Below are positions 40,872-62,617 of a stretch of DNA of 64,000 bases, piece by piece. Source of the stretch: an uncultured Desulfospira sp. Its GTDB lineage: Bacteria > Desulfobacterota > Desulfobacteria > Desulfobacterales > Desulfobacteraceae. Every line of letters starts with the position of its first letter. Position 1 is the first letter of the stretch. Where the stretch lies: positions 1,184,001 to 1,248,000 of the forward strand of contig OY760175.1 of the NCBI GenBank assembly GCA_963663165.1, in the 5' to 3' direction. Under the pieces are notes generated by a model. The model had not been told where the DNA came from. It searched no databases and was given only the letters and a program-made list of their open reading frames with translations. The translations under genes and the position numbers were made by a program.

Positions 40872-40887
40872 AGAACCTAACTATTAA

Positions 40888-41028: not shown

Positions 41029-41227
41029 TATTGATCGGGGTATGATAGGGTGGTGTAAACGATTTCGGGGGGATAATTGGGGTCAGGTAACGATTCACTC
41101 CCCTTTAGTAAAAGGAGTGGCTTCGAACTATGATCGGGCCATAATAACTAATTGAAATAAGGAGCAAAACGTTTTAAAACCGCCCCTCAGAATATGCCTA
41201 AAATGCATTTTTGAGGGGCGTCTTTAT

Positions 41228-41360
41228 CGTGGGTCGGACCCAGCCAACCACCTGAAATAAAACAAATACCCTCCCAAAACACCCTCCAAAACTGCCTTAG
41301 GCTGGTGGTTTTGGGGCCAAAAATAACGGTTTAAGAAAAATAAGGAACCGTCTCCCGTGC
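41228..41360 (+). repeat. Diverged homolog of the 133-bp inter-cassette element
   Basis: Shares gggtcgg..cagc.aacc, aaaac.gcctta, ttttggggcc.aaaa and ggtttaa blocks in the same order. Confidence 0.55.
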
Positions 41361-41438
41361 TCAGGCTCCAGCCCGGCAAACTGCCGCCGGGCTTCCGCTT
41401 CCTGCGCCGGGAGCCGACCTTAATTCCGGGGACACGAA

Positions 41439-41571
41439 CGGTTTGGGGTCGGGCCACAGCAACCCATTGTAATATCTATAAAAGAGCTAAAAATATACCC
41501 CTAAAACGGCCTTAATCGACTCTTTTGGGGGCCGAAAACATGGGTTTAATTTTACTCTGACCCTATTTTTA
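41439..41571 (+). repeat. 133-bp inter-cassette element, copy A
   Basis: cggtttggggtcgggccacagc...tttaattttactctgaccctattttta; identical by eye to copies C and D. Confidence 0.92.
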
Positions 41572-41631
41572 GCTATAAACCCGGCGGAACCTGGGGAACT
41601 GATCCGTTGTTCATGAAAGTTGGGCCTGAGT

Positions 41632-43096
41632 CAATGTCATAAAGTTAAGGATATATACATAAAATCTTTATAAATACAGTGCATTATGCTATATTTAACC
41701 TTAATAATAACCTTAAATATTTCTTGTGAAAGGAGAATAAAATGCCTGAAAAATTCAACCAATCTGGCATGGAACCTGCTTTCCAAAATATGTGCCGAGT
41801 TAATCGACTATCTTAAAAATATTCTGTATTCCCCGGAATTTATCGCCAGACATAAAAAAAACGAGAAAGATTTCACGCGCAAACGAACGCTCACTTTCCA
41901 GACACTTTTTTTGTATTTCATAAACTTCATTAAGGGCTCATATCAAGACGAGCTTGATCATTACTTCAAGGCTTTGTTTCGACTGGATGTTCCAATAAAA
42001 ATCGTTTCAAAAATGGCTTTATCTCTGGCTCGAAAAAAACTTGAATATGACGCCTTCCTTGAGTTTAATCACCATCTACTCGAGTTTTTCTATAATCGCT
42101 TTCGAAACATGAAAACCTGGAGAGGCTTTAATCTTCTTGCTATCGACGGTAGTACGCTAAAATTGTTCAAGTACAAAGAAGTCAGGGAACATTTCGGCGT
42201 GTTGAAACCCAATAAAGGCCCTGCTTGTGTAATGGCACGGGTTTCTCAAATGTTCGATGTGCTGAATAAGGTTACAATTGATGCCATTATCAGCCCTTTT
42301 AAAGTCGGAGAACGAGAGCTGTTTCATAATCATATGCTCAATCTACTCCCGAATGATTTGCTTTTATTAGATCGTGGCTATCCGGCCTATTGGATTTTTA
42401 ATTTGATTATGTCTTTGGATAGCAATTTTTGCGCAAGAATTTCAAAACAATGGAAAATCGTTCAAAATTTCATTGAATCGGGTGCCCAGGAAGCCATAAT
42501 TGATCTTCATGCTTCGTACCAATCAAAAAAAGAATGTGAAGAAATGGGTCTTGACGCCTCTCCCTTGTGTTTGCGCCTTATACGAGTTGAACTCGAAAGC
42601 GGTGAAATCGAAGTTCTCATCACATCACTGATCGATGAACAAAAATTCCCTTATGACATTTTTATGGACTTATATCATAAACGCTGGCCGGTGGAAGTTG
42701 ATTATCTTTTCATGAAACAACGCATTGAAATCGGAAATTTTTCCGGCACAACGGTATTGTCTGTCTATCAAGATTTCCATTCAAAAGTCCTGGCAAAAAA
42801 TCTTACGTGGGTACTGGCCTCCCCAGCTCAGGAGACAGTTGAAAAGGAGGACCATGAGAAAAAGTATGAATATCAGCTGAATATGACACAGGCAATTTCA
42901 AAATCTAAAGACACACTTTTTTTGCTTTTTGAAAGACCGCGTGAAATTATCGTACAGTTGATTAAAGACCTTCATGCTCTTTTCATGGCTGCAACAGAAC
43001 CAATTAGGCCCGGGCGTAAATTCAAAAGAAAACATAAGATCAACAAGCGAGAGCATTACATGAATAATAAGCCTTGTCGTTAACTTTATGACATTG
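41632..43096 (+). mobile_element. IS4-family insertion sequence
   Basis: Perfect 16-bp TIR caatgtcataaagtta; 10-bp TSD gggcctgagt. Confidence 0.95.
41686..43083 (+). CDS. IS4-family transposase
   Basis: FTRKR.L, LAIDGS, LLDRGY, YHKRWPVE (YREK-like) motifs; true start uncertain. Confidence 0.9.
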   Translation: MLYLTLIITLNISCERRIKCLKNSTNLAWNLLSKICAELIDYLKNILYSPEFIARHKKNEKDFTRKRTLTFQTLFLYFINFIKGSYQDELDHYFKALFRLDVPIKIVSKMALSLARKKLEYDAFLEFNHHLLEFFYNRFRNMKTWRGFNLLAIDGSTLKLFKYKEVREHFGVLKPNKGPACVMARVSQMFDVLNKVTIDAIISPFKVGERELFHNHMLNLLPNDLLLLDRGYPAYWIFNLIMSLDSNFCARISKQWKIVQNFIESGAQEAIIDLHASYQSKKECEEMGLDASPLCLRLIRVELESGEIEVLITSLIDEQKFPYDIFMDLYHKRWPVEVDYLFMKQRIEIGNFSGTTVLSVYQDFHSKVLAKNLTWVLASPAQETVEKEDHEKKYEYQLNMTQAISKSKDTLFLLFERPREIIVQLIKDLHALFMAATEPIRPGRKFKRKHKINKREHYMNNKPCR

Positions 43097-43299
43097 GGGC
43101 CTGAGTACTATTTTTATCACAACGATCACTTAGGCACCCCTCAAAAAATGACGGCTGTCAATGGAGCTGTGGTTTGGTCGGCTACGTACAGTTCGTTTGG
43201 CAAAGCTGAGGTTGATACTGCATCTACGGTTGAAAATAATTTGCGGTTCCCGGGACAGTATTTTGATGCTGAGACTAAACTGCACTATAATCACGTGGC

Positions 43300-43429
43300 T
43301 TGGGGTCGGGCCGCAGCAACCTGTTGTATTATTAGGAAAAGAGCTAAGAATATGCCCCTAAAACGGCCTTAATCGACCCTTTTGGGGGCCGAAAACATGG
43401 GTTTAATTTTGCTCTGACCTTATTTTTAC
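43300..43429 (+). repeat. 133-bp inter-cassette element, copy B (diverged)
   Basis: ttggggtcgggccgcagcaacc...tttaattttgctctgaccttattttta. Confidence 0.88.
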
Positions 43430-46400
43430 AGGATATTGAGATAACCGGCCGGGCCGTGGACCGCAGCGACGGCCAGCCTCTTGCGCAAGTCCCCCTGATC
43501 CTGGTGATTACCTTTGACGGATTTGAAAGAAGCGACCAAATCTATACCGGCAGTGACGGCAGTTTTACCTATGCCTTTGGCCCCACCCCGGGCCAATACG
43601 GAGAGTATAAAGCCTGCGCCATCCATCCGGATCTGATGGACCGTCCGGTCCAGGGAAGATTTACCATTGCACAAACCGTTAAAGACCGGATCGGGTTTGC
43701 CCCGGCAAGTGCTGAACTCACCACCTGCCTGCGGTATGAACGGCAAATCGAAGTCACCGTCACCGCAGGCAGTGAGGCATCGGCAACCAACCTCGGGTTT
43801 GTCTATGAGGCATCCGACCAGGAAGAAGAGACCCCGGCCCAGGGTATTCATGTGGATACCGGCGACCCAGTTGCAGAACTTGGTCCCGGAGAAACCCAGA
43901 CCATCACCATCACCCTGTGGGCCGATAATACGGCCGAAGAAAACACCACCATAACCCTCAGGCTGGTCAGCGACGAGGCCCCTGATACCGGCTGGGGAGA
44001 ATTGCCCATCCGTATCCAAACCACGGACACAGGCCCGGTGGTAACCAGTGAGCCTAACCGCATAGAAACCGGCCTTGCCCTGGACCAGAGTGTTACAGAA
44101 ACCCTCACCCTCAAAAACATTGGGTTCGCCCCCCTGGTTGATCCTGCGGTGTCTCTGGTAAACCGTGACGGCACCCCGGCCCCGGGCTGGGTGTTGTTGA
44201 ACCTGCCATCGGACATGGATGCCATTGAGGTCGGGGAAAGCGTAGATGCCACGGTGCTATTTTCTCCCACCCAGGCTGAAGTATCAGAAGGAGAGTATTA
44301 TTTTTACATTCAGGTGCAAGGCGCCAATTATGCGGCCGTGAACATCCCTGTCCATGCGGTGGTGACAAGTTCCGGCACGGGCCATATCCTGTTCAAGGTA
44401 TCGGATATCTACACCGGCACCATTGATGAAAAAACCGGCAAGATGATCCAGGGGCTGCCCGGAGCCGCGTTGACCCTGCAAAATGAGAGTGCCGCAAGCA
44501 TCACCTACAGCGGTGGTACAGACCAATACGGGGAGCTGCTCTTATCCGACATCCCCGCAGGCCGGTACAAGTATATCTTAAAAGCAGACGACCATGAGCA
44601 GTCCATTGGCCGGGTCTGGATCAAGCCGGGCATTACAGCCACCCAGGATGTTTTTTTAAACAACACCCTGGTCACCGTGGAGTGGTCAGTGGTTGAGACC
44701 GGTATCCAGGACCAGTATGAGATCGTATTAAAGGCTACCTATGAGACCAATGTCCCGGCACCGGTGGTGGTGGCCGATCCCCTGTCCGTCTCCCTTGCGG
44801 GCATGTCACCCGGCGATGTCCTGTCCGGAGAAATCCGGTTCACCAATTATGGGCTGATCCGGGCAGACAACATTGAATTTGCGGCCCCTTCGTCTGACCA
44901 ATATTTTAAATACGAGTTTTTGAACATCCCTGAGACCATAGAAGCCAAAGAATCGGTCAATGTGGCTTATCGTGTAACCTGCCTGTCAAGCCTGACCGGT
45001 GAGGACGAGGGCAACGGCGGAGGGACCGGCGGCTATTCGAAATCCGGCAAAATGAGTTACTGGGCCAAGTGTTACTCCGGGTCTGCATCAATTCATTTTC
45101 ATGTCCCGGGCGAAACCGGCATCGGTGGTGAGGGCAGTGAATATACCGGCTTGTCAGGCGGATCAGACTTCAGCCATTCGAGTACCATAGCCCACGGTGT
45201 AATGTGCTGGCCGAATATCGTCCGGAAAGAATCTTCAGATAACACAGGTGGATCTTCGGCAAACAAGCAGACCGGAATACAGAACATGCAACCCGCCGCA
45301 GAAACAGACCAAAAGCAATGCACCCTCTCTTCAGTGAATATGCTGTACCGGGAATATAATCGAAACAAAACCGACATCCGGGTCAAGGTACCCGGCGGCT
45401 TGGTTCGTTTATACCGGCAGTATTACAACAATCAGTGGCACTGGAATTATCTTGACGGCAATTTAACTGTTGTTCCAAGTTCCGGAACCGGGGGGATTGA
45501 TTCCATTGAAAAAAATGATGTTATTTACGAGCCCGCCGCCACATCAACCGGCAATCAAATTTTTGTCCATGAAAATTATAAAATCATTGCCGACGAAGAC
45601 GGCTATACCTGGAAGACCCCCTATGGTGACTGGAAAAAATTTGACCTGAACGGCCGGATGGTATCCCACGGCGGCCGGGCAGGCCAGGTCGCCCAACTCA
45701 TTTATGAAGATGAAGAAACCGGCAAACTTACAGGCATTGCCGATAAAAACCTGCGTCAGATATTCTGGTTTGAGTACGACGGGGAAGGGAACTTGTCGGC
45801 AGTGGAAGACCTTAAAGGTCGGCGGGTGGCGTATACCTATGAAAACAAACTGCTGACAGGGGTTCTGGATCTTCAGGAAGGTACCACCAGCTATGAATAT
45901 GACAGCGAAAACCGGATTATAAAGACAACCACACCAGATGGGCATTACTCAACCGTAGAGTACGACGAATACGGCAACGCAACCCAATCCCTGGATGAAA
46001 ACAGCAACGGATACGATTTTGAATACACCTATGATGAATCCACGGGCCTGTTTTACGCCATGACCACTTCTCCTGCAGGACAGGTTAAGGAAGCCTGGTA
46101 TGACCTTAACGGGTACACCCGCAGGGTCGATATCAACGGCCGGACGGTCAAGACCATTGATGTATCACAAAGAACCTTTGCCGTGACCGATGAGAACGGC
46201 AATGTAACACTGGAAGAGTATGATGAATGGGAAAACTTAACCCGGATGGTTTACCCGGACGGCAGTGAGGTGACTTACGAATACGAGCGGACCTATAACC
46301 AACCGGTCCGCATGGTAAATGAAAACGGTGTGGCCACCCTTTTTGAATATGACGACAACGGCAACCTGACCCAGAAGACAGAAGCGGCCGGAACCGATGA

Positions 46401-49044
46401 TGAACGCATCACCCAATACACCTATGATGAAGACGGCAATACCCTGACCATCACCATTTTGGCTGATGCCGTCACAAGTGTATCTCAAACCGTGATGACC
46501 TATGATGGCAACGGCAACCTTGAAACCCTTACCGACCCGGCAGGCGGAATTACCAGGTTCACCGATTATGACATTACAGGCAGGCTCCTTACAAAAATCG
46601 ACGCCAGGGGCAAAACCTGGGGCTACACCTACGACAACAAGAGCAACCTTAAAACCGCCACCGATCCTTTGGGCAACACCACTGAATATGAATACGACAA
46701 GGCCGGCAACCGGACCCGAATGGTGGATGCCCTGGGCCACCAGACCCTGTTTGAATATGATCTCCACAACAACCTTGTCCTGCAAATTGACCACGAGGGC
46801 AATGAAACCCGGTTTGAATATGATGCCGGCAATAATCTGATCCGAAAGACCGATCCCGAAGGATCAGCCACCCAAAACACCTATGACACCGAAGGACGTA
46901 TGGTGAGTACGGTTGACGGCCATGGGGATGAGACCATTTTCGAATACGATGACATTGATTCTGGCTGCTCATCCTGCAACGGGTCCCGGGGCCTTCCCTC
47001 CAGAGTCATCTATCCCACGTTTACAAAAACATTCACCTATGACAGACGAAACCGGAAAACCGCAGAGACAGACCATCTGAACGACACCACCGAAACCACC
47101 ACCCTGTTTGAATATGACAGCATCGGCAACCTCGCCGCTAAAACCGACAAAGAGGGAAGAACCACCGTATACATCTATGACGCCCTGAACCGGGTCACAA
47201 AAGTAATAGATTCGGCCAACAGTGAAACCATCTATGAATATGACAACCGGGACAACTTGATATCCTTGACTGACGCTGAAAACCAGACCACGTTATTTGA
47301 GTATGACGCAGCCAACCGGCTGGTAAAGGAGACCCGTCCCCTGGGCAATGAGACCATCTACACCTATGACGACGCCGGCAACCTGACCGAAAAGACCGAC
47401 GCCAAAAATCAGAAAACCGAATATAACTATGACGATGCCGGCAGGCTAAATGAGATCCGTTACTTTGCATCTTCAACCGACACGGTTCCTGCCAAAACCG
47501 TAACCTTCTCCCACGACAAAACCGGCAACCTGACCGGCTACAACGACGGGACCACCTCAGCGGCCTACATCTACAACACCTTAAACCAAAAGACCAAAGA
47601 GACCGTGAACTACGGGGTATTCTCCCTTGAAACCGGCACAACCTATTACGGCAACGGCCTGAAAAAGAGCCAGACCGGGCCGGACGGCACCACCTACGGA
47701 TACCTGTACGACACCAACAATCAACTTTCTGCTGTACAGGTCCCCAATGCCGGGTATATAACTGTCGGGGAATACCAGTGGAACCGGCCCAAGTCTTTGC
47801 TGTTCCCCGGTGGCAGCCAAAGGACCGTTGAATACGACCCTCTCATGCGCATCAAGCAGATCACGGCCCGGGACCAGGCAGACAATCAAAACTTAAGCTT
47901 GGCTTATGAGTACGACAAAATGGACAACATAACCGCCAAAGCCACGGAACACGGCTCTTATGCTTATGAATACGATGCACTGTACCGGTTAACCCAGACG
48001 GACAACCCGGTCCAGGATGACGAGGCCTTTACCTATGACAACGTGGGCAACCGGCTGACATCTGCAGATACTTCCGCACAGTGGGCCTACAACCAGAACA
48101 ACGAACTGGCCGGTTACGACGATGTAACCTTTACCCATGACGCCAACGGCAACATCATCGAGAAGAACAATAACGGTACCATCACCCGCTTTTACTACAA
48201 TATCGAAAACCGCCTGGAGCGTGTAGAAAGCGAATCCGGAACAGTAATTGCCGAATACTACTATGACCCCTTTGGCCGCCGTCTCTGGAAAGACGTATCC
48301 GGAACCCGAACCTGCTACCACTACACCGACGAGGGCCTGGCAGGCGAATACAATGCCGCAGGCAACACGAAAAAGACCTACGGCTACAAACCCGGCGGAA
48401 CCTGGGGAACTGATCCGTTGTTCATGAAGGTTGGGTCCGAGTATTATTTTTACCACAATGACCACTTAGGCACCCCTCAAAAAATGACGGCTGTCAATGG
48501 GGTTGTTGTTTGGTCGGCTAGGCACAGTTCGTTTGGCAAAGCTGAGGTTGATTCTGTATCTACGGTTGAAAATAATTTACGGTTCCCGGGACAGTATTGG
48601 GATGCGGAGATGGGGCTGAATTATAACTGGCATCGGTATTATGATTTGCACACCGGACGATATATCACTGCTGATCCGATTGGGCTTGACGGCGGGATTA
48701 ATTATTATTTTTATGCGAAACAAAATCCAATCACTTTTGTTGACTCATTGGGCTTAGTATGTGGATCAGGCTGGAATGATCCGATAGTCCCTGATGAATG
48801 GTTTCTTTTTGATTTTACTGATGCATGCCAAAAACATGATGATTGCTATGGAAATTGCAAAGGCCCTAAGAAGGAAGTCTGTGATCGTAATTTTTTAAAC
48901 GACATGTTAAGCAAATGCCAAAAAGAAGGAATGTTCCAACTAGTTCTAGATTGTAAAATAAAAGCATATATCTATTATAAATTCGTTGATTGGTTTGGAG
49001 GCGGTCCATTCGATGATTCTAGGAAAAACTGTTGTAACCCATAA
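43430..49044 (+). pseudogene. Orphan RHS module 2, N-terminally truncated copy with phospholipase A2-like tip
   Basis: Homology to the main gene starts abruptly after repeat B; open from GTG 43456; tip CGSG...FTDACQKHDDCY..C..CD..F..M..C. Confidence 0.85.
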
Positions 49045-49049
49045 AATTA

Positions 49050-49514
49050 ATGATATCTAAGATGACTTTTTCTTCTACTAAATTATTATATAATTTTATG
49101 CCTATTATCATAGGTATGATAACACCATCAACCCTTCTTTTTTTTGTTCAAATTTCTATCGGTGATTATCAAATATTTCAGGCTGTTCAGGATATATGCC
49201 ACAAACAATTCGCATCTGGGTATAATTACCTTTTGCTGACTGTTATCGGTTTGTTTCCCTTTGTGATTTTAAGCATAATACTGAGTAGAAGAATAGAGAA
49301 CAAAGAGTTAATCAATACAGATGATTGGATTTTTTGCTTGGTAGGAATATTTGGAATTTTAATTTTAATGATACCTAGCCATCTGATTGTTTGGGTTCCT
49401 ATATATAGAGCAACAAGAGCGTCCTCTACATCAGTAATAGCCTTTTTTTTTGTACCATTCTATAGCCTTCTTTCTATGCTCATAACTATATTCATATTTA
49501 AAAAAATCAGATGA
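49050..49514 (+). CDS. Putative membrane immunity protein for module 2
   Basis: 154 aa, about four hydrophobic segments, AT-rich, 5 nt after the toxin stop. Confidence 0.7.
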   Translation: MISKMTFSSTKLLYNFMPIIIGMITPSTLLFFVQISIGDYQIFQAVQDICHKQFASGYNYLLLTVIGLFPFVILSIILSRRIENKELINTDDWIFCLVGIFGILILMIPSHLIVWVPIYRATRASSTSVIAFFFVPFYSLLSMLITIFIFKKIR

Positions 49515-49611
49515 TCGGGCAGATAGTTCGTTGATTTGAAAGAGGACCGTGGGTCGGGCCGCAGTAACCAATTGCTGTTTGGGGGTCGGGCCGAAAGCGC
49601 CGATGATAATT

Positions 49612-49631
49612 GGGGTCAGAGTAAAATTAAA
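49612..49631 (+). repeat. GGGGTCAGAGTAAAATTAAA motif (inverse of the 3' end of the 133-bp element)
   Basis: Exact match to 58220-58239; follows an immunity gene. Confidence 0.85.
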
Positions 49632-49702
49632 TTGTCTGACAATTCAATGCACCTCACCTTTCCGGTACTCTCTTGACGGTTGTCCCCCCAAGAGAGTACA
49701 TT

Positions 49703-50713
49703 TTAATTTCCGATAGATTTCATCAATTCAGGAATTGATTTGGCGGAAATGATTTTACCTTTCAAAGCTTTAAGACGATTGATGTCCTGGATAGTCTTGA
49801 TTTTTGTTATAATCGTTTTGCAGTCATCGCAGTCGCCAAACTTAATGCTGACAGCCAATTCAATGCCTTCGATAAGCCCTTGCTCAAGCCCTTGCTCAAG
49901 CCCTTGCTCTCGCCCCTGTTTAAGCCACTTTTCCCGGCCTTCGTTTCTTAATTTTTCAGCCAAAGTCATGATAAAGTCTCCTTTTTCTTCAGACAACGTA
50001 TTTGATACGATAGCATGGAACTTTTTTGTTGTAATATCCTCAACGTTGCTGAATAAATATCTTATCAGAGATTCAAAATATTGCAATCCGGTTTCCTGCT
50101 CGGAAAGATCTTTTAACAACATAAAAATATCGGGCAATTTACTGACCAAATCCGGGTCAAAAATATGCTTGAACAAGAGCATGGTTACCCGGGCCATGAT
50201 GGTTCCCCTGATCTGGTCGTCAGTATATTGGGACAAATCATACAGGATGAACTCAAAATCAGGGATATAGGCTGCCAATTCATCCACCGGTCCCTCAAAA
50301 AGAGATGCAAAGCGGTTTGTCCACCCGCCATTTACCTTTGCCGTGGTATAAAACAAGAGGGATAACAATAGGCAACTTTTTATTTTTGGACTGTTTGAGC
50401 CCAAGACGCCAGATTTTGGCCATATACTCAAAAAGCTGAATGTGAATCAGGCTGTCCAGATAGCTTTTATGCTCAAAAAGAAAGTATACAAACCCTTGAG
50501 AATTCCCGATCCTGACTTTATAGAGCATGTCAGAATAAAAATCTTTCAGGTCCTTGTCAACAAATGAGTCTTTGCAAATCTCAAGGGTATCCAGCCGGAC
50601 AAGATCAATGACAGCCCGGGCAGATAATTTTCCAAAAAGGATCTGGCATTGTTCAGATTGCTCCAGGTATCACGAAACAGCTTGTCATGAGTACGATTCA
50701 ATTTCTTTTTCAT
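49703..50713 (-). pseudogene. Rpn/YhgA-like recombination-promoting nuclease, two frameshifts
   Basis: HDKLFR, SFVDKDL..FYSDMLY, FEHKSY, LPIVIPLVLYHG, MTLAEKL..EG..QGLEQG spread over three frames. Confidence 0.88.
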
Positions 50714-50781
50714 ACCGGCATTTGTACCATGGCGACCCGGCGGCCGCAAGATTTTATCCGGCACCCTGCACCGCTAATACT

Positions 50782-53700
50782 GCCGTGGACCCGGCCGGCA
50801 ACGAATCCGCCCCATCCGAGCCCGCTTACCTTGATTTTGAGCTGCTGCCCGTACAAACCCTGACAGTAACAAGATCCGGTCAAGATGACCCTGTAATCGC
50901 CTGGACCCATACCGGCTCCAGCATCACCGGGTATGACATTTACCTTGGCCCTTCGGATAACCTTGTAAAGCTGAACAGCGAACGGCTGACCCAGTCCTCT
51001 TTTACGGATACCGGGTATGACGGCAGTGAAAGACAGTATACGGTTGTGGCCGTGAACCATAACAATGTGCCGTCCCTGGGCCGCAGCATTGTCCTGCCCG
51101 TTCTGAGCATGGATCTGCCCGGGGATGCCGTTCTCAAACGCGGGTTGATGAACCGCCTTGAATACACCGTGGCCAACAGCGGAACCAGTGCCGTGGACAG
51201 AGCGGTTTTAAAGGTAACGGCCCAGGGCCGGGAACATGTCTCACAAACCTTTGGCATTGACCCGGGTGCATCCCAGACCATACCCGTGGTGATCGGCGGG
51301 TACAGCGACCTGCCGGACATGGTATCCCTGGCCTCTGCCATAGAGATCTCCCCCAATGACAGAGAAACCGTCCGCATCGAAAACCAGGCCGAGATTGAGG
51401 CCGGCACCGGCATGCTCCTTCTCACCTTTACCAATGACGAACTTGTTCGGGGCACCCAGGGTGAGATTGTTTTCACCCTGGAGAACACCGGGGATGAACA
51501 GATCGAAATAATTACAGCCCAGTCCAATGGCCGCCCGTCTGCCGACATTACCCTTTACCTCAGCGATAAAGACGGCAATGTCCTTTCCACAGGCACTTAC
51601 ACCCAGGTTTACGGCAGCAACGTGGTCAACCTGTACAACGGCGGCACCATTGCGCGAATCAACCCCGGTGAGACTTTTGAATCCCAGCCCATGGCCATTG
51701 CCGTGCCTTCAGGGGCTTGCGATGACCTTGTGCTGACCCTTAGATCAGCAATATCTATTACGCCTTGGGAGAACCCGAACAGGTCACCATGGCGGGGGGT
51801 AGCACCAGCCGGGACATCACGTTGATGGATACAGCCTATTACGGAGAGATCCTGACCATCAATCCTGAAGAGTCCAACGGCACCCGGGATATAGAAATCA
51901 TCGGCCGGGCCGTGGACCGCAGCGACGGCCAACCTCTTGCGGAAGTCCCCCTTATCCTGGTGATTACCTTTGACGGATTTGAACGAAGCGATGAGGTCTA
52001 TACCGGCAGTGACGGCAGTTTTACCTATGCCTTTGAACCCACCCCGGGCCAATACGGGGAGTATAAAGTCTGCGCCATCCATCCGGACCTGATGGACCGT
52101 CCGGTCCAGGGTAGATTTACCATTGCGCAAACCGTTAAAGACCGAATCGGATTTTCCCCGGCAAGTTATCAGCTCACCACCTGCCTGCGGTACGAACGGC
52201 AAATTGAAATCACCGTAACCGCAGGCAGTGAGGCATCGGCAACCAACCTCGGGTTTGTCTATGAGGCATCCGACCAGGAAGAAGAGACCCTGCCCCAGGG
52301 CATTCATGTGGATACGGGTGATCCGGTTGCCGAACTTGGTCCCGGAGAGACCCAGACCATCACCATCACCCTGTGGGCCAATAATACGGCCGAAGAAAAC
52401 ACCACCATAACCCTCAGGCTGGTCAGCGACGAGGCCCCTGATACCGGCTGGGGAGAACTGCCCATCCGGATCCAAACCACGGACACAGGCCCGGTGGTAA
52501 CCAGTGAGCCCAACCGCATAGAAACCGGCCTTTCCCTGGACCAAAGCATTACAGAAACCCTCACCCTCAAGAACATGGGGTTCGCCCCCCTGGTTGATCC
52601 TGCCGTGTCCTTGGTAAACCGTGACGGCACCCCGGCCCCGGGCTGGGTTTTGCTGAACCTGCCGTCGGACATGGATGCCATTGAGGTCGGGGAAAGCGTG
52701 GATGCCACGGTGCTATTTTCTCCCACCCAGGCTGAAGTATCAGAAGGAGAGTATTATTTTTACATTCAGGTGCAAGGCGCCAATTATGCGGCCGTGAACA
52801 TCCCTGTCCATGCGGTGGTGACAAGTTCCGGCACGGGCCATATCCTGTTCAAGGTATCGGATATCTACACCGGCACCATTGATGAAAAAACCGGCAAGAT
52901 GATCCAGGGGCTGCCCGGAGCCGCGTTGACCCTGCAAAATGAGAGTGCCGCAAGCATCACCTACAGCGGTGGTACAGACCAATACGGGGAGCTGCTCTTA
53001 TCCGACATCCCCGCAGGCCGGTACAAGTATATCTTAAAAGCAGACGACCATGAGCAGTCCATTGGCCGGGTCTGGATCAAGCCGGGCATTACAGCCACCC
53101 AGGATGTTTTTTTAAACAACACCCTGGTCACCGTGGAGTGGTCAGTGGTTGAGACCGGTATCCAGGACCAGTATGAGATCGTATTAAAGGCTACCTATGA
53201 GACCAATGTCCCGGCACCGGTGGTGGTGGCCGATCCCCTGTCCGTCTCCCTTGCGGGCATGTCACCCGGCGATGTCCTGTCCGGAGAAATCCGGTTCACC
53301 AATTATGGGCTGATCCGGGCGGACAATATTGAATTTGCGGCCCCTTCGTCTGACCAATATTTTAAATACGAGTTTTTAGACATCCCTGCCACCATAGAAG
53401 CCAAAGAATCTGTCAATGTGGCTTATCGCGTAACCTGTCTGTCAAGCCTGACCGGTGAGGATGAGGGCAACGGCGGGGGGGCCGGAAGCTATTCGAAATC
53501 GGGTAAAATGAGTTACTCTGCCAAGTGTTACTCCGGGTCTATATCAGTTAATTTCAATGTCCCGGGAACCGGCAGCGGTGGTGACTGGACAATGCCTTGG
53601 GGATCGGCGAGCAGCACAGGCTTTGGCCGTTCCAGCGAAATTCCCGAAGGGGTGAAATGCTGGCCAGGTTATGACCGTGAAGAACCATCCTTTCTTAACG

Positions 53701-56700
53701 CTCCAAAATCAGATCAAATCCAATGCGTTTTGTCTTCAGTGAATATGCTGCACCGGGAATATAATCGCCACAAAACCGACATCCGGGTCAAGGTGCCCGG
53801 GGGGACGATAAGTTTTGAACGGCGGTATTACGACAACCAGTGGCACCTGGATTATCTGGATGATAATTTAACCTTTCAAAGCACAGGATCGGACTTAATT
53901 ATTAAAAACGATGTTAAATACAAACCTGTCGCCAACGACAGCCGTATTTTTATCCATAAAAATTATAAAATTACCACCACCGACACCGGGTATACCTGGA
54001 AGGCACCCCATGGCGACTGGAAAAAATTTGACCCGGACGGCCGCATGATATCTTACGGTGACCGGAACGGCCTGGTGGCCCAGCTCATTTACGAAGATGG
54101 AGAAAATGGACGACTTACAGGCATAGCCGATAAAAACATGCGCCAAATATTCTGGTTTGAATACGACGGGGAAGGAAACCTGGCAGCCGTAGAAGACTTT
54201 GAGAGGCGTCGGATTGAATACTCTCATGGGAATGGCCTGCTTACGGACGTCCAGGATTTACAGGGGAATACAACCAGCTATGAATACGACGATGAGAACC
54301 GGATTATAAAGACAACTACGCCAGACGGGCATTATTCCACAGTGGTATACGACGAATACGGCAATGCCATCCAATCACTGGATGAAAACAACCAGGGGTA
54401 TGGTTTTGAGTATGCCTATGATGAATCCGCGAGGCTGTCTTATGCCATGACGACTTCTCCTTCAGGACAGGTCAAGGAGGCCTGGTATGACCTGAACGGA
54501 TACACCCGCAGGGTTGACATCAACGGCCGGACAGTCAAGACCATTGATGTATCACAAAGAACCTTTGCCGTGACCGATGAGAACGGTAATGTAACCATCG
54601 AAGAGTATGATGAATGGGAAAATTTAATCCGGATGGCCTACCCGGACGGCAGTGAGGTGACTTACGAATACGAGCGGACCTATAACCAACCGGTCCGCAT
54701 GGTAAATGAAAACGGTGTGGCCACCCTTTTTGAATATGACGACAACGGCAACCTGACCCAGAAGACGGAAGCTGCCGGCACCGATGATGAACGCATCACC
54801 CAATACACCTATGATGAAGACGGCAATACCCTGACCATCACCATTTTGGCCGATGCCGTTACAAGTGTCTCTCAAACCGTGATGACCTATGATGACAACG
54901 GCAACCTTGAAACCCTTACCGACCCGGCAGGCGGAATTACCCGGTTCACCGATTATGACATTACAGGCAGGCTCCTTACAAAGATCGACGCCAGGGGCAA
55001 AACCTGGGGCTACACCTATGACACCAAAGGCAACCTTAAAACCGCCACCGATCCTTTGGGCAACACCACTGAATATGAATACGATAAAGCCGGCAACCGG
55101 ACCCGAATGGTGGATGCCCTGGGCCGCCAGACCCTGTTCGAATATGATCTCCACGGCAACCTTGTCCTGCAAACCGACCACGAGGTCAACGAAACCCGGT
55201 TTGAATATGATGCCGGCAATAACCTGATCCGGAAAACCGATGCCCAGGGCTCCACCACCCAAAGTACCTATGACACCGAAGGCCGCATGGTCAGCACGGT
55301 TGACGGCCATGGGGATGAGACCGCTTTCGAATACAATGATACAGATACCGGCTGCTCGTCCTGCAACGGTTCCCGGGGCCTGCCCTCCAGGATCATCTAT
55401 CCCACGTTCACAAAAACATTCACCTATGACAGACGAAACCGGAAAACCGCAGAGACAGACCATCTGAACGATACCACCGAAACCACCACCCTGTTTGAAT
55501 ATGACAGCGCCGGCAACCTTGCCGCAAAAACCGACAAAGAGGGGCGAACCACCGCATACACCTATGATGCCCTGAACCGGATTACAAAAGTAATTGACCC
55601 GGCCAACGGTGAAACCATTTATGAATATGACGACCGGGACAACCTGATATCACTGACCGACGCTGAAAACCAGACCACGCTATTTGAGTATGACGCAGCC
55701 AACCGACTGGTAAAGGAGACCCGTCCCCTGGGCAATGAGACCACCTACGCCTATGACGACGCCGGCAACCTGACCGAAAAGATTGATGCCAAAAACCAAA
55801 AAACCGAATATAACTATGACGATGCCGGCAGGCTAAAACAAATCCGTTACATTGCATCTTCAACCGGCACGGCTCCTGCCAAAACTGTAACCTTTTCTTA
55901 CGACAAAACCGGCAACCTGACCGGCTACAACGACGGGACCACTTCAGCGGACTACACCTACAACACCTTAAACCAAAAGGTCAAAGAGACCGTGAACTAC
56001 GGAGCATTCTCCCTTGAAACCGGCACAACCTATTACGGCAACGGCCTGAAAAAGACCCAAACCGGGCCGGACGGCACCACCTACGGCTATCTGTACGACA
56101 CCAACAATCAACTTTCTGCTGTACAGGTCCCCAATGCCGGGTATATAACTATAGGTGAATACCTGTGGAACCGGCCCAAATCGTTGCTGTTCCCGGGCGG
56201 CAGCCAAAGAACCGTTGAATACGACCCTCTCATGCGCATCAAGCAGATCACAGGCCGGGACCAGGCAGACAATCAAAACTTAAGCTTGGCTTATGAGTAC
56301 GACAAAATGGACAACATAACCGCCAAAGCCACGGAACATGGCTCGTATGCTTATGAGTACGATACCCTGTACCGGTTAACCAATACGGACAACCCGGTCC
56401 TGGATAACGAGGCCTTTACCTATGACAACGTGGGCAACCGGATGACATCGGCAGAGACTTCCGCCCAGTGGTCCTACAACCAGAACAACGAACTGGCCGG
56501 TTACGACAACGTAACCTTTACCCATGACGCCAACGGCAACATCATTGAGAAGAACAACAACGGTACCATTACGCGCTTTTACTATAATATTGAAAACCGT
56601 CTGGAGCGTATGGAAAACGAATCCGGGACTGTAATTGCCGAATACTACTATGACCCATTTGGCCGCCGTCTCTGGAAAGACGTATCCGGAACCCGTACCT

Positions 56701-57653
56701 GTTACCACTACACTGACGAGGGCCTGGCAGGCGAATACAATGCCGCAGGCAACGCGGTAAAAACCTACGGCTATAAACCCGGCGGAACCTGGGGAACTGA
56801 TCCGTTGTTCATGAAAGTTGGGCCTGAGTACTATTTTTATCACAACGATCACTTAGGCACCCCTCAAAAAATGACGGCTGTCAATGGAGCTGTGGTTTGG
56901 TCGGCTACGTATAGTTCATTCGGTGAGGCAGAAATTGATCCTGCATCTACGGTTGAAAATAATCTGCGGTTCCCGGGACAGTACTATGACTCTGAAACCG
57001 GGATACATTACAATTTTTATCGTTACTACAATCCCGAAACCGGACGATATATAACAACTGATCCTATCGGGTTTGAAGGAGGGTTTAATCTTTTTGTTTA
57101 TGTTTTAAACAACCCTTCAGGGTGGATAGATCCTATGGGGCTGAACCCTTACAAATGGGGATATTGCGGCCCTGGCTATCGAGCAGGCCCTGGTAGAGAG
57201 TGTTGGCCAACAGATGACCCAAAGTATCAATGCCCACCTGGATATTATAAAGCAGGGAAAGAGTGTTTTCCAAAGACTATGGACGAATATCCATGTGGGG
57301 CAGGAAGAATCGATGATGGGCACGGAAGTTGCGTTAAAGTTTGGCCGCCCCCTTCTCCAAAGTCTGAAGAGAAAGGAGCATATTGTGAATATGGGAATAG
57401 AATAATTTCTTGCACACTCGATGCTGCATCGGTTGTAGCTACAGTAACCGGGGCTGGGGTGCCTGTTGGCATAACTATCAACGTTATAAGTGTTGGACAT
57501 GGATTTATAGCGTGGTCTGTTTGCGGTGGAAGTACGTCAACGGGTACGACAATCGTTGGAGGAGTGGCTGGTATAATTCCTAATGCAACAGCTAAAAAAA
57601 TTAATTTAGCTATGACCGCTATAGACGCTGCTTTAAATGTTGCAGGTTATTAA
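50782..57653 (+). pseudogene. Orphan RHS module 3, N-truncated with a 1-bp frameshift near 51740; Cys-rich plus Gly-rich hydrophobic tip
   Basis: Homology to the main gene from about 34177; gacccttagatc vs gacccttgagatc; NNPSGWIDPMGL cleavage motif. Confidence 0.85.
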
Positions 57654-58161
57654 AGCAATGAACACTCTCTGCTATTCCTTTATAGTATATTACGTGTTAG
57701 GTATTGTATTAAGCCTTTTAAAAATCCCTGATGCAGATCAATTCAGTGATATATTAATTATTGTCCCTTTTTATACTTTTTTACCTTTTTTAATTATTTG
57801 TTTTTTTCTAATTAAAAGTTTTAATCTCGGTAAAAAAAAACAAGTATTATGGAATACTCTTTTGTTTTCAATAGCTTTTTCCATAGCGACAGCCCAATGG
57901 GTCTATTATTTAAACATGAATATAGGAGAACATAAAAAGATCACAATTGCAGGACAAGTTATTTCAAAGAAACCTGGAAAAGGAAACTCAAAACCGGTAA
58001 TTACGATAAAGAATACTGAAACGACTATTCATTTAGCTATAAAGCGAAGTGTATGGACGCAAATAAATAATTGGGAAGGAATCTCAATAGATTTACGAAA
58101 GGGTCGTTTTGGATTTTATTATTTACAAAAGGGGGAGCTAGCTGAAAGTATGGCGGAGTGA
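57637..58161 (+). CDS. Putative membrane immunity protein for module 3
   Basis: Three TM-like segments plus soluble tail; start 57637 or 57658. Confidence 0.7.
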   Translation: MLQVIKAMNTLCYSFIVYYVLGIVLSLLKIPDADQFSDILIIVPFYTFLPFLIICFFLIKSFNLGKKKQVLWNTLLFSIAFSIATAQWVYYLNMNIGEHKKITIAGQVISKKPGKGNSKPVITIKNTETTIHLAIKRSVWTQINNWEGISIDLRKGRFGFYYLQKGELAESMAE

Positions 58162-58239: not shown

Positions 58240-58805
58240 TATTGAATTATTTCATTACAATGATAAGTTAAGCCCATGGCACGATTACAACGAATCGAAT
58301 CCGGAACTATAATTGCCGAATACTACTATGACCCCTTTGGCCGCCGTCTTTGGAAAGACGTATCCGGAACCCGAACCTGCTACCACTACACCGACGAGGG
58401 CCTGGCAGGCGAATACAATGCCGCAGGCAACACGAAAAAGACCTACGGCTACAAACCCGGCGGAACCTGGGGAACTGATCCGTTGTTCATGAAGGTTGGG
58501 TCCGAGTATTATTTTTACCACAATGACCACTTAGGCACCCCTCAAAAAATGACGGCTGTCAATGGGGTTGTTGTTTGGTCGGCTAGGCACAGTTCGTTTG
58601 GCAAAGCTGAAGTTGATCCTGCCTCAACGGTTGAAAATAATCTGCGTTTCCCGGGACAATATTTCGATTCTGAAATCGAGGCTCATTACAATTTTCATCG
58701 TTACTATGATCCAGGAATCGGGCGGTATATTACTGCTGATCCTATTGGGCTTGGGGGTGGAGTGAATCTTTTTGTTTACGCCCTAAATAATTCTATTACT
58801 TTAAT

Positions 58806-60651
58806 CCCAAAATAAGTGTGAAATAAGTAATAAAAATGAGAAAAAAGTCTCGAAACGCCTATCAATAAAGAGTATAATGAGTTTGGCAAAACGAACTATA
58901 CCAAATTGAAAGGGCGTTTCGAGTGAATAAGAATATCATCAAAAAATTGGCAAAACGCAAGAAAAAAATAAGCAAAAAACTGAACAAAAGAGATTGGACT
59001 GAGCAGCCAACTCCCATGCTAAAGGCATCCAATATCCAGTATGAGATCGACGGTCGCCTTCAGGGAATATCACATGGAGGCATTGGCCTGATCCATATGT
59101 TGGCCAAAAAGACCGGCCTTTTGAAAGAAATCGATAAAGAACTTGAGCTGCTCAAGCGCCATTTGCCATATCATGAATCTGATCATGTCGCCAATATGGC
59201 ATACAATATTCTTGCAGGCGGAACCTGTCTTCAGGACATTGAATTGCAAAGAAACAATGATGCCTGGCTTAATGCTCTGGACGCAAAAATGATCCCTGAT
59301 CCGACAACGGCAGGGGATTTTTTGCGCCGGTTTTCCCAGGAAAATATCATTACCCTGATGGATGTGAAAAATACCATACGGAAAAAAATATGGGAAAAGC
59401 AGCCTCAAAATTTCAAAGAATCAGCCATCATCAATATTGACGGAACTATCAGTGAGACAAGCGGCAAGTGCAAACAGGGTATGGACATCTCCTACAATGG
59501 TAAGTGGGGGTATGCCCCGCTGGTTGTTTCACTGGAGAGAACAAGGGAACCTCTTTATGTCATCAACCGCTCGGGCAATGCCCCGTCCCACCTTGACTCT
59601 GCCCGGTGGGTGGATAAGGCTCTTGATCTGACGGAAGGCACTTTTAAAAAATTATACGTTCGGGGAGATACGGATTTCAGCCTTACCACGCACTTTGACA
59701 AATGGGATCAACGTTGTTCCTTTATTTTTGGCATGGATGCCAGATCAAATCTAACAAAACGTGCAAATGCTCTTCCTGAAACCGACTGGGTCAGGCTTGA
59801 AAAACTGTCTGCGAAAATTAAAACTCAGCCCCGGAAACGTCCTGAGAATATCAAACTTCAAGTGGTGAAAAAGCGCAAATTCAAACGCATAGAGACTGCG
59901 TATGAACATATAGCCGAGTTTGAATACAAACCGGGAAAATGTCAAAAACCATACAGAATGATCGTTTTGCGTAAAACAATAAACGAGTTCAAGGGAGAAT
60001 TACTACTGTTCGATGATATCCGCTACTTTTTTTATATTACCAATGATTGGAAAAAACCGGCCAAACAACTGGTAGCCTTTTACCGGAAACGGGCTGACCA
60101 CGAAAATGATATTGAACAGTTGAAACATGGCGTACGTGCTATGGATAATCCTTCAGACTCTTTGAATGCCAACTGGGCCTATATGGTTATTACCTCCATG
60201 GCATGGGATCTGAAAGCCTGGTATGGGCTGCTGATGCCATATCGTGCATTAGGGCTTTCCATCATCCGCATGGAATTCAAGCGTTTTATCCAGACATTTA
60301 TAAACATCCCCTGTTTAATTTTGAAATCTGGCAGGGCTATAAAATATCGAATTATTGGCTATAACAACCGGCTCCAAAGCATGTTCAAATATTTTGATTT
60401 TATAAGGACCGTCCGGGTTACATGATGCCATTGCTCTCCGGATAGTTATTGCAAACGGGTTGCAATGGCGAGTCCAAACCCTGCAGTCTCAAAAAAGGAA
60501 TGACAAAAACATGAAACACAAGACAACTGGCAATACTCAAAAAAACTGGGGACTCGTGTTTCTACTGGATGGCAAGTTGGTGGCCAAAATAATACCTCAA
60601 ACGGCGGGTTGCTCATGAGTATATCTTTTTTGAAAACGCGCTTGTTTTGGG
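58806..60651 (+). mobile_element. IS1380-family insertion sequence
   Basis: TIR cccaaaataagtgtg / cgcgcttgttttggg; TSD tttaat. Confidence 0.9.
58923..60425 (+). CDS. IS1380-family transposase
   Basis: PDPTTAGDFLRRF, IDGT, YNGKWGYAPL, VRGDTDF, R..HENDIEQLK, ANWAYM motifs. Confidence 0.9.
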   Translation: MNKNIIKKLAKRKKKISKKLNKRDWTEQPTPMLKASNIQYEIDGRLQGISHGGIGLIHMLAKKTGLLKEIDKELELLKRHLPYHESDHVANMAYNILAGGTCLQDIELQRNNDAWLNALDAKMIPDPTTAGDFLRRFSQENIITLMDVKNTIRKKIWEKQPQNFKESAIINIDGTISETSGKCKQGMDISYNGKWGYAPLVVSLERTREPLYVINRSGNAPSHLDSARWVDKALDLTEGTFKKLYVRGDTDFSLTTHFDKWDQRCSFIFGMDARSNLTKRANALPETDWVRLEKLSAKIKTQPRKRPENIKLQVVKKRKFKRIETAYEHIAEFEYKPGKCQKPYRMIVLRKTINEFKGELLLFDDIRYFFYITNDWKKPAKQLVAFYRKRADHENDIEQLKHGVRAMDNPSDSLNANWAYMVITSMAWDLKAWYGLLMPYRALGLSIIRMEFKRFIQTFINIPCLILKSGRAIKYRIIGYNNRLQSMFKYFDFIRTVRVT

Positions 60652-61091
60652 TTTAATAGATCAGATAGGGTTATCGGTAGAGTTGGGATTCAGTGGCGAT
60701 TTTTGGATAGTCGGATGTAGCGCTCATCGTATTTATGATACATGTTGCAAAGATGGGAGAGTTATAAAACGTACAATATCAAAAGCTTGTATTAGTTTTG
60801 GACCGGCACTTGAAGCTAAGCTTGAATTGCATAATATAGTAAAAATCATTAAATACTTAACTGACAGTATTAAATATGACCCCAATAATAATGAAGGTCA
60901 CTGTGATGAAGATTCGTGGGTTACAAACCCCAATAACGAGTACGGGGGTACTTTCTTGGTATACAACCATGACTCAAGAACTGGACCTAATTTTAAAATT
61001 GGATTAGGTGGATATTGGCGTTGGTTTAAACATTGCCGATATAAAGTTGTAGATTCAGAAGAAACTGATCAATGTTGTAATACTGAATAGG

Positions 61092-61355
61092 TTGTATGAG
61101 ATGTATTATTTAACATTCAGCGGCTATGCTACAATAATATGTTTAGCTATTTTCTTTTTAACATCAACTTACATCTTAATTAAGCTCGGTATAAGGAATA
61201 TGGCAATATATGAATCTTACATTATTATTTTTCCCATTTTTATTATAAAGTACATTATTCAAGAAGGCACCTGGAAAAGTTTCTCAATAGTTTTCACTAA
61301 TATTATCTCTATTATTTTATGGTTTTTTCTCGGCTTTATGGAAAAGTCATTTTAG
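61092..61355 (+). CDS. Putative small membrane immunity protein
   Basis: Hydrophobic, AT-rich, abuts the module 4 stop. Confidence 0.6.
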   Translation: MYEMYYLTFSGYATIICLAIFFLTSTYILIKLGIRNMAIYESYIIIFPIFIIKYIIQEGTWKSFSIVFTNIISIILWFFLGFMEKSF

Positions 61356-61361
61356 TCGAGG

Positions 61362-61664
61362 ATGGAAAAGGGTATTTTTTATATGGAAGTTCTTATGCAG
61401 TTAACCTTACCATTGTCTGCTCTTGTAACAGTAATAACTTATTTAAATTTTTTAAAACAGATTAGAAACAACATTGATCGAATTGATGTCAATATTGATA
61501 ATTTTTTCGTTTTAAACTTTCTATCAGTGTATAAATCATATATTAGAACTCGAAAATTAGATAATTTAAATATTGGGGTTATGTTTTATGTTCATTTTAT
61601 TTTTTTATTTATAATGATCATTTTAGCCTATTTGCTCGACGGGAAACAGGTTTTCATAATTTAA
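61362..61664 (+). CDS. Putative second/orphan membrane immunity protein
   Basis: Two TM-like segments; GAGG before ATG. Confidence 0.55.
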   Translation: MEKGIFYMEVLMQLTLPLSALVTVITYLNFLKQIRNNIDRIDVNIDNFFVLNFLSVYKSYIRTRKLDNLNIGVMFYVHFIFLFIMIILAYLLDGKQVFII

Positions 61665-61764
61665 TTCGGTGACCGGGAGATAATTGGTCAAATGCGCTGG
61701 GCTTTTAGCGCAGCTTGATCCTCGATTCCCTAAAATCATCTTGTATGGCCTTTAAAACCGACTT

Positions 61765-61897
61765 CGGTTTGGGGTCGGGCCACAGCAACCCATTGTAATA
61801 TCTATAAAAGAGCTAAAAATATACCCCTAAAACGGCCTTAATCGACTCTTTTGGGGGCCGAAAACATGGGTTTAATTTTACTCTGACCCTATTTTTA
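61765..61897 (+). repeat. 133-bp inter-cassette element, copy C
   Basis: Identical by eye to copy A. Confidence 0.92.
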
Positions 61898-62009
61898 CAT
61901 GGCGACTGGAAAAAATTTGACCCGGACGGCCGCATGATGTCTTACGGTGACCGGAACGGCCTGGTGGCCCAACTCATTTACGAAGATGGAGAAAATGGAC
62001 GCCTTACAG
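61898..62009 (+). pseudogene. Short internal RHS fragment followed by AT-rich hydrophobic remnant
   Basis: catggcgactggaaaaaatttgacccggac...gccttacag matches about 37416-37527. Confidence 0.8.
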
Positions 62010-62266
62010 TTGACAAAGAAATATTCAATTATTTTTATTTTAATAGAATAATGTTAGAATTAAGATATGAAATTATGACAAATATTATGCTTATTTTCAT
62101 TGCACTCCTTATAATTTTTTTAACTTATATAAGACGAAAAAGAGTATCGAAGAGTATCGAAGCCGGGCGAAGCCGGGTCGGACCGAAAGCGCCGATTAAA
62201 ACCGGTAAAGGATAGAGAATGAAAAATGCGAGCCGCCGAGCCGTATGATGTGTTCGGTTTGCCACG

Positions 62267-62399
62267 CGGTTTGGGGTCGGGCCACAGCAACCCATTGTAA
62301 TATCTATAAAAGAGCTAAAAATATACCCCTAAAACGGCCTTAATCGACTCTTTTGGGGGCCGAAAACATGGGTTTAATTTTACTCTGACCCTATTTTTA
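62267..62399 (+). repeat. 133-bp inter-cassette element, copy D
   Basis: Identical by eye to copy A. Confidence 0.92.
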
Positions 62400-62407
62400 C
62401 TATTTTT

Positions 62408-62617
62408 AGTGTTGGGCGTTGTTTAGTCGCTGAAGAGGCTAAGTGCCAAAAACAACAAAACTGTGCTTTAAGAAACAAATGTCGTTTTAATGCTCATGTA
62501 AAATGCTATACAAAATATGTATTTGTTGATCCTTTTAATCCTTTTGGCCCAGGCTTTCCAGAGGGTGGGCCGGAATTAGGATGGGAAGAACTTTTCCCAG
62601 ATTGGTGGGAAAATTAG
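62408..62617 (+). pseudogene. Probable orphan toxin-tip fragment (Cys-rich, no start codon)
   Basis: Open 69-codon frame SVGRCLVAEEAKC...FPDWWEN*, followed by hydrophobic ORF starting at 62634. Confidence 0.5.

Follow-up and report, generated by a model that had tools for sequence, protein, structure and literature searches.

TIRtrons, in which a Y1/HUH transposase gene (TIRYT) lies between terminal inverted repeats (TIRs), were described in 2013 (Di Nocera et al., PMC3733652), and their enzymes make up TnpA-Y1 subclass 2.1 of Quentin et al. 2018 (PMC6006769), Table 1 of which gives the motifs of that subclass and equates it with TIRYT. For TnpA_REP, the enzyme associated with repetitive extragenic palindromes (REPs), a nick, extend and rejoin model has been published (PMC3333891, Fig. 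7B). Arrays of truncated Rhs toxin genes have been ascribed to homologous recombination via circles or to homology-facilitated illegitimate recombination (Jackson et al. 2009, PMC2935791; Kirchberger et al. 2017, PMC5361080), and in the portions of these two papers considered here no enzyme is named as the maker of the illegitimate junctions in arrays of polymorphic toxins. Here we describe a 64,000-nucleotide stretch of an uncultured Desulfospira sp. (the window; G000:C1:1184001-1248000, where G000 is the source genome and C1 its contig; coordinates without prefix are window positions), in which a repeated 133-134-bp element is interspersed with truncated Rhs copies. We show, on the strength of sequence comparison, that this element and the inverse motifs found behind immunity genes in the same array are ends of TIRtrons, whose transposases are of the TnpA-Y1 subclass 2.1 type. 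The family is a described one and its enzyme-type signature is real; its Rhs context is one that we did not find in print.

The repeated element is a hybrid of two TIRtron ends

The window carries an intact 4787-aa Rhs gene (26508-40871) followed by truncated copies beginning at 41572, 43431, 50779, 58293 and 61898, with further truncated copies continuing past the window end (Table 1). This is the layout of an Rhs orphan array, in which an intact gene precedes same-clade cassettes of truncated core, tip and immunity gene; toxin and immunity functions are putative here, apart from a phospholipase A2 Pfam match. As a sequence-only reading of this DNA had reported, the element occurs four times, with three copies identical across 133 bp and the copy at 43296 matching at 89%, and TTTAATTTTRCTCTGACCYTATTTTTA closes all four. 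A fifth complete copy with an Rhs fragment after it lies at C1:913121-912991, and four partial copies elsewhere in the genome are each limited to the first 85-103 bp. We found no target-site duplication (TSD) at any of the four window copies, unlike the IS4 and IS1380 insertion sequences (ISs) within the same array, which have clean ones. Its REP-like character was not borne out: the element folds no better than shuffled sequences (z -0.79 to 0.04 in 4/4 folds) and contains no REP-type hairpin.

On its right side the element ends in the TIR of a Y1/HUH gene that lies at C1:3023522-3024298 and has a second copy, broken by an IS, at 4947520-4950175; this is an associated enzyme with the same ends, of the kind that the sequence-only reading had suggested looking for. 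In homolog loci, with records that include Desulfobacter, Desulfobulbaceae and Pseudohongiella, the same TIR flanks Y1 genes downstream in 10/10 of those shown and upstream in 9/10, the remaining one being cut by a contig end. The motifs of these homologs (NHVH, W[EQ] and YIELNP) fit subclass 2.1; NCBIfam REP_Tyr_transpos scores of 74.8-78.4 lie below the cut-off of 80, and the sole PDB sequence match is 4ER8 (E 0.0027). Over its left ~110 bp, as far as a shared TTTAA, the element aligns with a second TIRYT type (E), namely with the end and leader of that type. The element is therefore a hybrid, with an E-type end and leader on the left and an A-type TIR on the right. A-type ends read GGGGTCAG and the element's own right end AGGGTCAG, the consensus TIR start being GGGGWSAS; the E-type left end reads GGGGTCGG, one position off that consensus, yet heads Y1 genes. 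Open-frame TIRYT genes of four other types are present in the source genome. Rhs sequence is joined directly, at 58219-58292, to the start of an A-type TIRtron, comprising left end, leader and first transposase codons. The E-type TIRYT gene at C1:804.6-806.1 kb is split by an IS200 element and is uninterrupted in the sister genome G012 (L126).

Some of the sites first grouped with the element proved to be less than whole. The supposed diverged homolog at 41228 comprises only a left end and leader, without a right TIR; the inverse motif at 41079 has the tail and GGGGTCAG (41080) and lacks AGTAAAATTAAA; and the degenerate motif near 61685 amounts, at 61679, to a tail plus GTCA only.

Rhs homology starts directly past the tail ATTTTTA at three different main-gene positions: 41572 corresponds to main-gene 40177, 43431 to 35294 and 61898 to 37416. 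These joints hold 0-2 unexplained bases, with zero shared bases at 41572 and 61898. The claim that cargo begins right after each copy holds at these three sites; the copy ending at 62399 is followed by a 9-nt stutter and then by a Cys-rich open frame without a Pfam match, which is only putatively toxin-like. A fixed element boundary against a variable cargo boundary is likewise seen, with the proviso that the join at 43431 is not unique, recurring at C1:912984 and in G012. A complete toxin-immunity cassette follows just one of the four copies, that at 43296. The remaining three are followed by remnants: a core piece of ~250 bp interrupted by IS4, one of 112 bp and one that is tip-like. Contigs of run X20, possibly from the source sample, match 40700-41468 and 48516-49634 without any difference and span the immunity/49544 junction, with a short side of only 29-30 letters, below the threshold for a bridged junction, at the 41440 and 49605 boundaries.

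Cassettes such as 43430-49611 had been read as bracketed mobile units. The ends adjoining this cassette point outward and are parts of two separate elements on its flanks, so that 43430-49611 is not a composite unit with inward ends. The 5' edge of cassette 50779 lacks a TIR. The left-type ends behind immunity genes are all oriented downstream, and the right ends meet older remnant sequence. No integrase domain was detected among the 31 window open reading frames (ORFs) scanned, and the element gave no significant fold (no attC model was run); the nearest tyrosine recombinase lies at C1:1253279.

Stutters start at a fixed distance outside the ends

We catalogued 133 ends in 85 loci with motif families written partly by eye from stuttered sites; applied to three locally shuffled genomes, the same families matched 1, 0 and 1 sites. 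Defining a stutter as an upstream partial copy of an end's own terminus, we found stutters at 66/133 ends compared with 339/13,737 other GGGWCR sites, and at 41/85 ends of the four families seeded from gene-flanking TIRs. The stutter begins 7-9 nt outside the GGG core in 48/66 cases, peaking at -8 for A ends and at -7 for E ends, positions that equal the right and left boundaries of the element, respectively, and the element-Rhs junctions share this register. In family C, which has 23 distinct tails among 26 ends, the start still lies at about -8. Stutter joints comprise 22 with overlap, 19 blunt and 25 with extra bases, showing no microhomology excess: overlaps are no commoner than chance would give (by calculation, at about 44% of blunt joins). 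Among A ends in relatives 19/45 are stuttered, and orthologous ends in G000 and G012 bear differing stutters.

Two short palindromic mini-elements (G000:C1:596422-597311 and 2974052-2974104) have identical outside tails in inverted orientation, as if one end had been copied back on itself.

TIRtron ends are enriched behind Rhs cores

Of the 85 TIR loci, 19 fall in the 5-kb zones behind Rhs cores, which make up 1.4% of the genome (15.6-fold enrichment), against 7/147 for control multi-copy IS-like repeats (3.3-fold; Fisher p 1e-4), so the enrichment at Rhs loci foreseen by the sequence-only reading is present. It holds without the window locus (12/77 TIR loci versus 5/143 IS-like repeats, p 0.0025) and at the level of regions (6/43 versus 1.9 expected, p 0.006), although TIR loci are clustered and all these p values are therefore overstated. 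Each of the four multi-cassette Rhs loci contains 5-8 TIR loci, compared with one TIR locus in 1/5 single-gene loci. Free ends of Rhs fragments, a few of which are mutual copies, lie 4-12 nt outside a TIR core in 6/28 cases versus 1/400 random positions, and by eye about 6 more of the 28 reach a TIR via a stutter run or from inside.

The association is partial. The other 66/85 TIR loci lie elsewhere, families B and C are absent from the 5 kb behind Rhs cores (0/20), 40/85 TIR loci fall in low-GC DNA, which is 12% of the genome, and no Rhs core was found near A-type TIRYT genes in 14 A-type homolog loci. A system dedicated to toxin cassettes, as originally envisaged, does not fit this distribution.

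Two whole ~2000-aa Rhs genes with a hydrophobic N-terminus (G000:C1:1778185 and 1784771; L137) are headed by a stuttered E-type TIR end and leader, with the Rhs gene in the position expected of a TIRYT gene; this layout recurs in another genus (G053, L026:4170). The leader may serve there as a portable promoter.

Junctions at TIRtron ends differ between sister genomes

The stretch orthologous to the array measures about 5 kb in G012 and about 76 kb in G000. It retains the 43431-type junction, contains three other element/Rhs joints, and no match to G000 within it covers any toxin tip; runs X21 and X23 carry the same joints as G012. We compared 33 G012 TIR loci and read about a dozen junctions by eye. 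Informative sites numbered five: four where both flanks were mapped and just one of the two genomes has the end, and one other. All five are replacements or deletions of about 0.1 to 14.5 kb and none is a clean insertion; the largest change takes out most of another Rhs gene. One G012 joint (L117) has its carried tail exactly at -8. Of the proposal that the system captures, truncates and shuffles cassettes, truncation at ends is thus seen in G012, and enzymatic capture or shuffling of functional tips finds no support.

Several further observations concern these genomes. Runs X21 and X23 contain a low-depth joint from 45718 to 49583, leading from Rhs sequence into an E3-type end, that was not seen in the G000 window or in the G012 loci fetched. 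In G012, D-type ends (L117 1456-2279 and L119 664-1701) head small accessory modules that replace other DNA relative to G000, one of which resembles a toxin-antitoxin pair by eye. The shrunken G012 island terminates, again by eye, in an integrase-like fragment and a tRNA-like sequence (L028 ~13900-14500; G012:C1 ~4617900-4618500), which suggests that the Rhs locus lies within a tRNA-anchored island.

Exact A ends occur in 11/61 genomes of the family, including 5/5 of genus g18, in which no Rhs core match was found. A ends in relatives mostly abut ordinary genes; in loci L031-L047 many genes stop no farther than about 20 nt from an A-type end, whose tail includes a TAA codon. Elsewhere in the family, TIR-type ends were seen in only 2/11 inter-core intervals read. 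Repeated TIR-type ends were recognized by eye in 4/20 Rhs stretches (4/17 genomes) of a phylum sample and in 5/20 stretches (4/11 genomes) of the class of G310, figures that come from stretches chosen for multiple cores among the rows listed and that have no matched non-Rhs control in those genomes. We take the class of G310 to be Gammaproteobacteria. A fusion of TIR, leader and TIRYT start to Rhs occurs twice in G181; in G414, stutters lie at -8/-9, and the boundaries of Rhs sequence are no more than about 3 nt from the tail. One TIR has 4/5 of its copies in Rhs arrays in G181 and 6/9 in G404, proportions biased by patterns taken from the arrays themselves.

Features of the window and a distant copy

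Table 1. Features of the Rhs array in window coordinates
Feature	Position	Strand	Remark
Intact 4787-aa Rhs/YD gene	26508..40871	+	Donor reference for every downstream fragment
Short hydrophobic ORF past main gene, putative immunity	40888..41028	+	
Partial end: A-type tail GATAATTG + GGGTCAG	41072..41086	+	
E-type TIRtron left end + leader	41224..41345	+	Formerly the "diverged homolog"
D-type TIR end remnant	41420..41438	+	Abuts element copy 1
Hybrid mini-element copy 1	41440..41571	+	Start 41439/41440; E-type end + leader, A-type TIR + 8-nt tail
Rhs core remnant (main gene 40177 to ~40425)	41572..43295	+	TIR tails at both sides
IS4-family element	41632..43096	+	10-bp TSD; clean insertion, contrast case
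Hybrid mini-element copy 2 (89%)	43296..43428	+	Right junction also in C1:912984 and G012
Orphan cassette: 5'-truncated Rhs (43456-49044), phospholipase A2-like tip, putative immunity gene (49050-49514)	43429..49514	+	
Three stacked left-type ends	49544..49632	+	E2 49551, E3 49583, A 49613 (tail 49605)
Broken Rpn/ISNCY-like gene	49703..50731	-	
Orphan cassette: Rhs 50779-57653, putative immunity 57637-58161	50779..58161	+	5' edge without TIR
Stutter + A-type TIRtron left end + leader + first TIRYT codons	58206..58292	+	Fused to Rhs fragment
Fusion ORF	58276	+	Begins MARLQRI
Orphan cassette: core fragment, tip, two small hydrophobic ORFs	58293..61664	+	
IS1380 with TSD	58806-60651		Interrupts cassette 58293..61664
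Degenerate end/stutter remnant	61670..61690	+	
Hybrid mini-element copy 3	61765..61897	+	
112-bp Rhs remnant	61898..62009	+	100% identity to main gene 37416-37527
Stuttered E3-type end	62148..62200	+	Core at 62175
Hybrid mini-element copy 4 (62267-62399)	62255..62408	+	Stutters at both ends
Cys-rich tip-like remnant	62402..62617	+	No Pfam match

Upstream of the Rhs operon, the window contains a DruA-like (PF14236) gene and an ISNCY transposase (12460-13332 and 14465-15637). An inverted repeat of 57 nt (8872-8943 and 12029-12086), which has a short tandem stutter of its own, brackets a radical SAM gene region and is adjoined by an isolated Rhs fragment (12190-12330); a piece similar to 8932-9046 recurs in four G012 Rhs-region loci. 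Some 300 kb from the array, G000:C1:911581-913121 holds a 1.5-kb copy of array pieces comprising the element, two Rhs fragments and A, C and E ends.

Discussion

Any account of this array has to accommodate the identity of the ends, a stutter register that coincides with the element-Rhs junctions, the lack of TSDs and microhomology, the enrichment behind Rhs cores and the polymorphism between G000 and G012. We think it fairly probable that TIRYT nicks outside its own end and joins one-endedly to other DNA, trimming or capping Rhs cassettes as it does so, and that the swapping of tips is probably the work of RecA. The enzyme would bind the TIR, nick the GGGG strand on the outer side of the GGGWC core, some 7-8 nt away or sometimes at the TIR edge, and be retained on the 5' end as a phosphotyrosine. 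Brief extension of the freed 3'-OH followed by rejoining would yield a stutter unit; joining of another 3'-OH instead would give a one-ended junction, seen as a deletion, a replacement or a cap, in which the element boundary is fixed and the partner arbitrary. Rhs arrays would be a favoured and tolerant substrate, so that many orphan cassettes would end up trimmed or capped at TIR ends, with tip exchange onto the full-length gene proceeding, as in the established model, by homologous recombination through multi-kb core arms. The two long cassettes do retain 5-6 kb of core homology, a length sufficient for tip exchange by ordinary recombination. We infer the nicking at -8/-7, the 5' attachment and the one-ended joining from stutters and junctions, and the stutters would fit the nick, extend and rejoin model of TnpA_REP if that model can be transferred to TIRYT.

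Several observations weigh against this interpretation. The stutter rate is inflated, the families having been written partly by eye from stuttered sites; stutters show no replichore bias (41/76 lagging versus 25/57 leading ends); and about half of the 28 free Rhs ends contact no TIR. The A-type TIRYT gene is frameshifted near its start in both genomic copies, in contrast to intact homologs in relatives, so A-end events would be past or catalysed in trans. Two of the joints read (L104 and L010) have target-derived tails and hence imply a second cut register at the TIR edge. Finally, biochemical activity data for any TIRYT were not found in the literature searched.

We regard as unlikely that the ends are passive scars, left by mini-elements that inserted two-endedly and cleanly in non-essential islands and that later, through RecA-mediated recombination between copies, lost the intervening DNA and acquired mismatched flanks. 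The three identical, co-oriented copies fit such a history, as do the accumulation of IS4, IS1380, IS256-like and Rpn genes at the locus, the concentration of TIR loci in low-GC DNA and the ordinary genes that ends in relatives chiefly adjoin. Yet none of the five informative sites is a clean insertion, many junctions are single-ended without a partner copy (49613, 58221 and C1:1262586), and IS-like repeats are enriched only ~3-fold; stacked ends of different families and inner fusions (58292) would also be left unexplained. If this passive history alone were true, the ends would still mark rearrangements. Host repair at a protein-bound obstacle, with the TIR merely bound, forks stalling there and slippage or microhomology repair producing stutters and deletions without HUH catalysis, seems very improbable to us. 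It would account for the overlaps at 22/66 stutter joints and for the conserved, AT-rich tails of A, D and H ends, but not for a start register fixed across unrelated tails, the zero microhomology at 41572 and 61898, an overlap rate no higher than chance or the conservation of the HUH and Tyr motifs.

A domesticated system dedicated to capturing and shuffling toxin cassettes, with the ends as attachment sites that add toxin-immunity pairs to the array, would have to contend with the 66/85 loci that do not lie within 5 kb behind Rhs cores, the 0/20 of families B and C, the g18 ends without Rhs, the lack of repeated TIR-type ends in 16/20 (phylum sample) and 15/20 (class of G310) arrays, and G012 joints that mark toxin-tip loss and the 14.5-kb Rhs deletion. 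We consider it quite improbable despite the contrast between multi-cassette and single-gene loci, the co-oriented ends behind immunity genes, the E end and leader heading whole Rhs genes here and in G053, and the biased share of one TIR in the arrays of G181 and G404. The TIRYT system is not dedicated to toxins and is often destructive.

That the edges of the element stand exactly where Rhs genes were cut and rejoined points to TIRYT as a candidate enzyme for the unexplained joints in toxin-immunity arrays. More speculatively, this enzyme could supply the non-homologous joint when a new cassette displaces an old tip: the incoming core-tip-immunity cassette would recombine by homology at one side and, at the other, be ligated via its TIR end anywhere in the resident gene. 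The orientation of ends behind immunity genes is what displacement needs, and deletion after duplication predicts the same. Tentatively, and with more doubt than confidence, we extend this to TIRYT as a general one-ended joiner that cuts at a ruler distance outside its TIR and, in the lineages that have it, makes the non-homologous joint of Rhs C-terminal displacement, so building toxin-immunity arrays in at least two phyla. The locus yields base-precise predictions: the substrate would be a TIR plus 8 nt outside it, the nicked strand the GGGG strand, the register -8 for A, -7 for E and occasionally 0, and the products stutter units and one-ended joints.

Comparison with described systems

Three familiar classes were considered for the element and rejected. 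REP/BIME-RAYT systems (groups 2 and 3; BIME, bacterial interspersed mosaic element) do not match, there being no GTAG-tagged stem-loops in high copy and just five full copies. A classical DDE miniature inverted-repeat transposable element is at odds with TSDs at none of the four copies and colinear flanks at 0/5 informative sites, unlike IS4 and IS1380, and a composite transposon with the outward-facing ends beside 43430-49611. One-ended rolling-circle transposition by IS91/ISCR elements combines HUH chemistry with one fixed end and adjacent DNA of variable length. The enzyme family there is another one; here equivalent TIRs stand at both ends and the products are mostly short stutters and deletions.

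TIRtrons as published share with this system the Y1/HUH gene between TIRs with a GGGGWSAS-like start, the absence of a REP hairpin, the small families of solo or paired TIRs, the NHVH/WE/YIELNP motifs and a length of ~233 aa (PMC3733652, PMC6006769), and differ in that the E-type ends here depart from the consensus at one position. The fixed-register outside stutters, hybrid mini-elements, one-ended junctions and Rhs link are not described in the portions of those papers considered here, though the figures and supplements of those papers may show flanking stutters. TnpA_REP/RAYT enzymes with REP/BIME (Ton-Hoang et al. 2012, PMC3333891) belong to the same catalytic superfamily, and the model published for their amplification, by nick, 3'-OH extension and attack on Tyr-5'P, would produce tandem units such as those found here; the present element has no hairpin or GTAG, its unit ends are variable and its cut register appears to depend on the distance to the TIR and not on a CT dinucleotide. 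In picocyanobacteria, a subclass 2.1 enzyme was proposed to diversify an antagonism-type gene family (procA-tnpA_REP; Laurenceau et al., 10.1101/2020.03.09.984088), where inverted repeats were not found and the causal claim was later withdrawn; here the ends stand at base-precise junctions. In the parts of the literature covered by our searches, including sections of PMC8125069, PMC5727410, PMC5581495 and 10.64898/2026.07.13.738213, we found neither a TIRYT-Rhs link nor one joining RAYT with toxin, immunity and Rhs. With the arrays formed by Rhs C-terminal displacement (PMC2935791, PMC5361080) the locus shares the intact gene followed by variably truncated core-tip-immunity cassettes; where the portions of those papers considered here leave the non-homologous joint without a named enzyme, many joints of the present array bear TIRYT ends.

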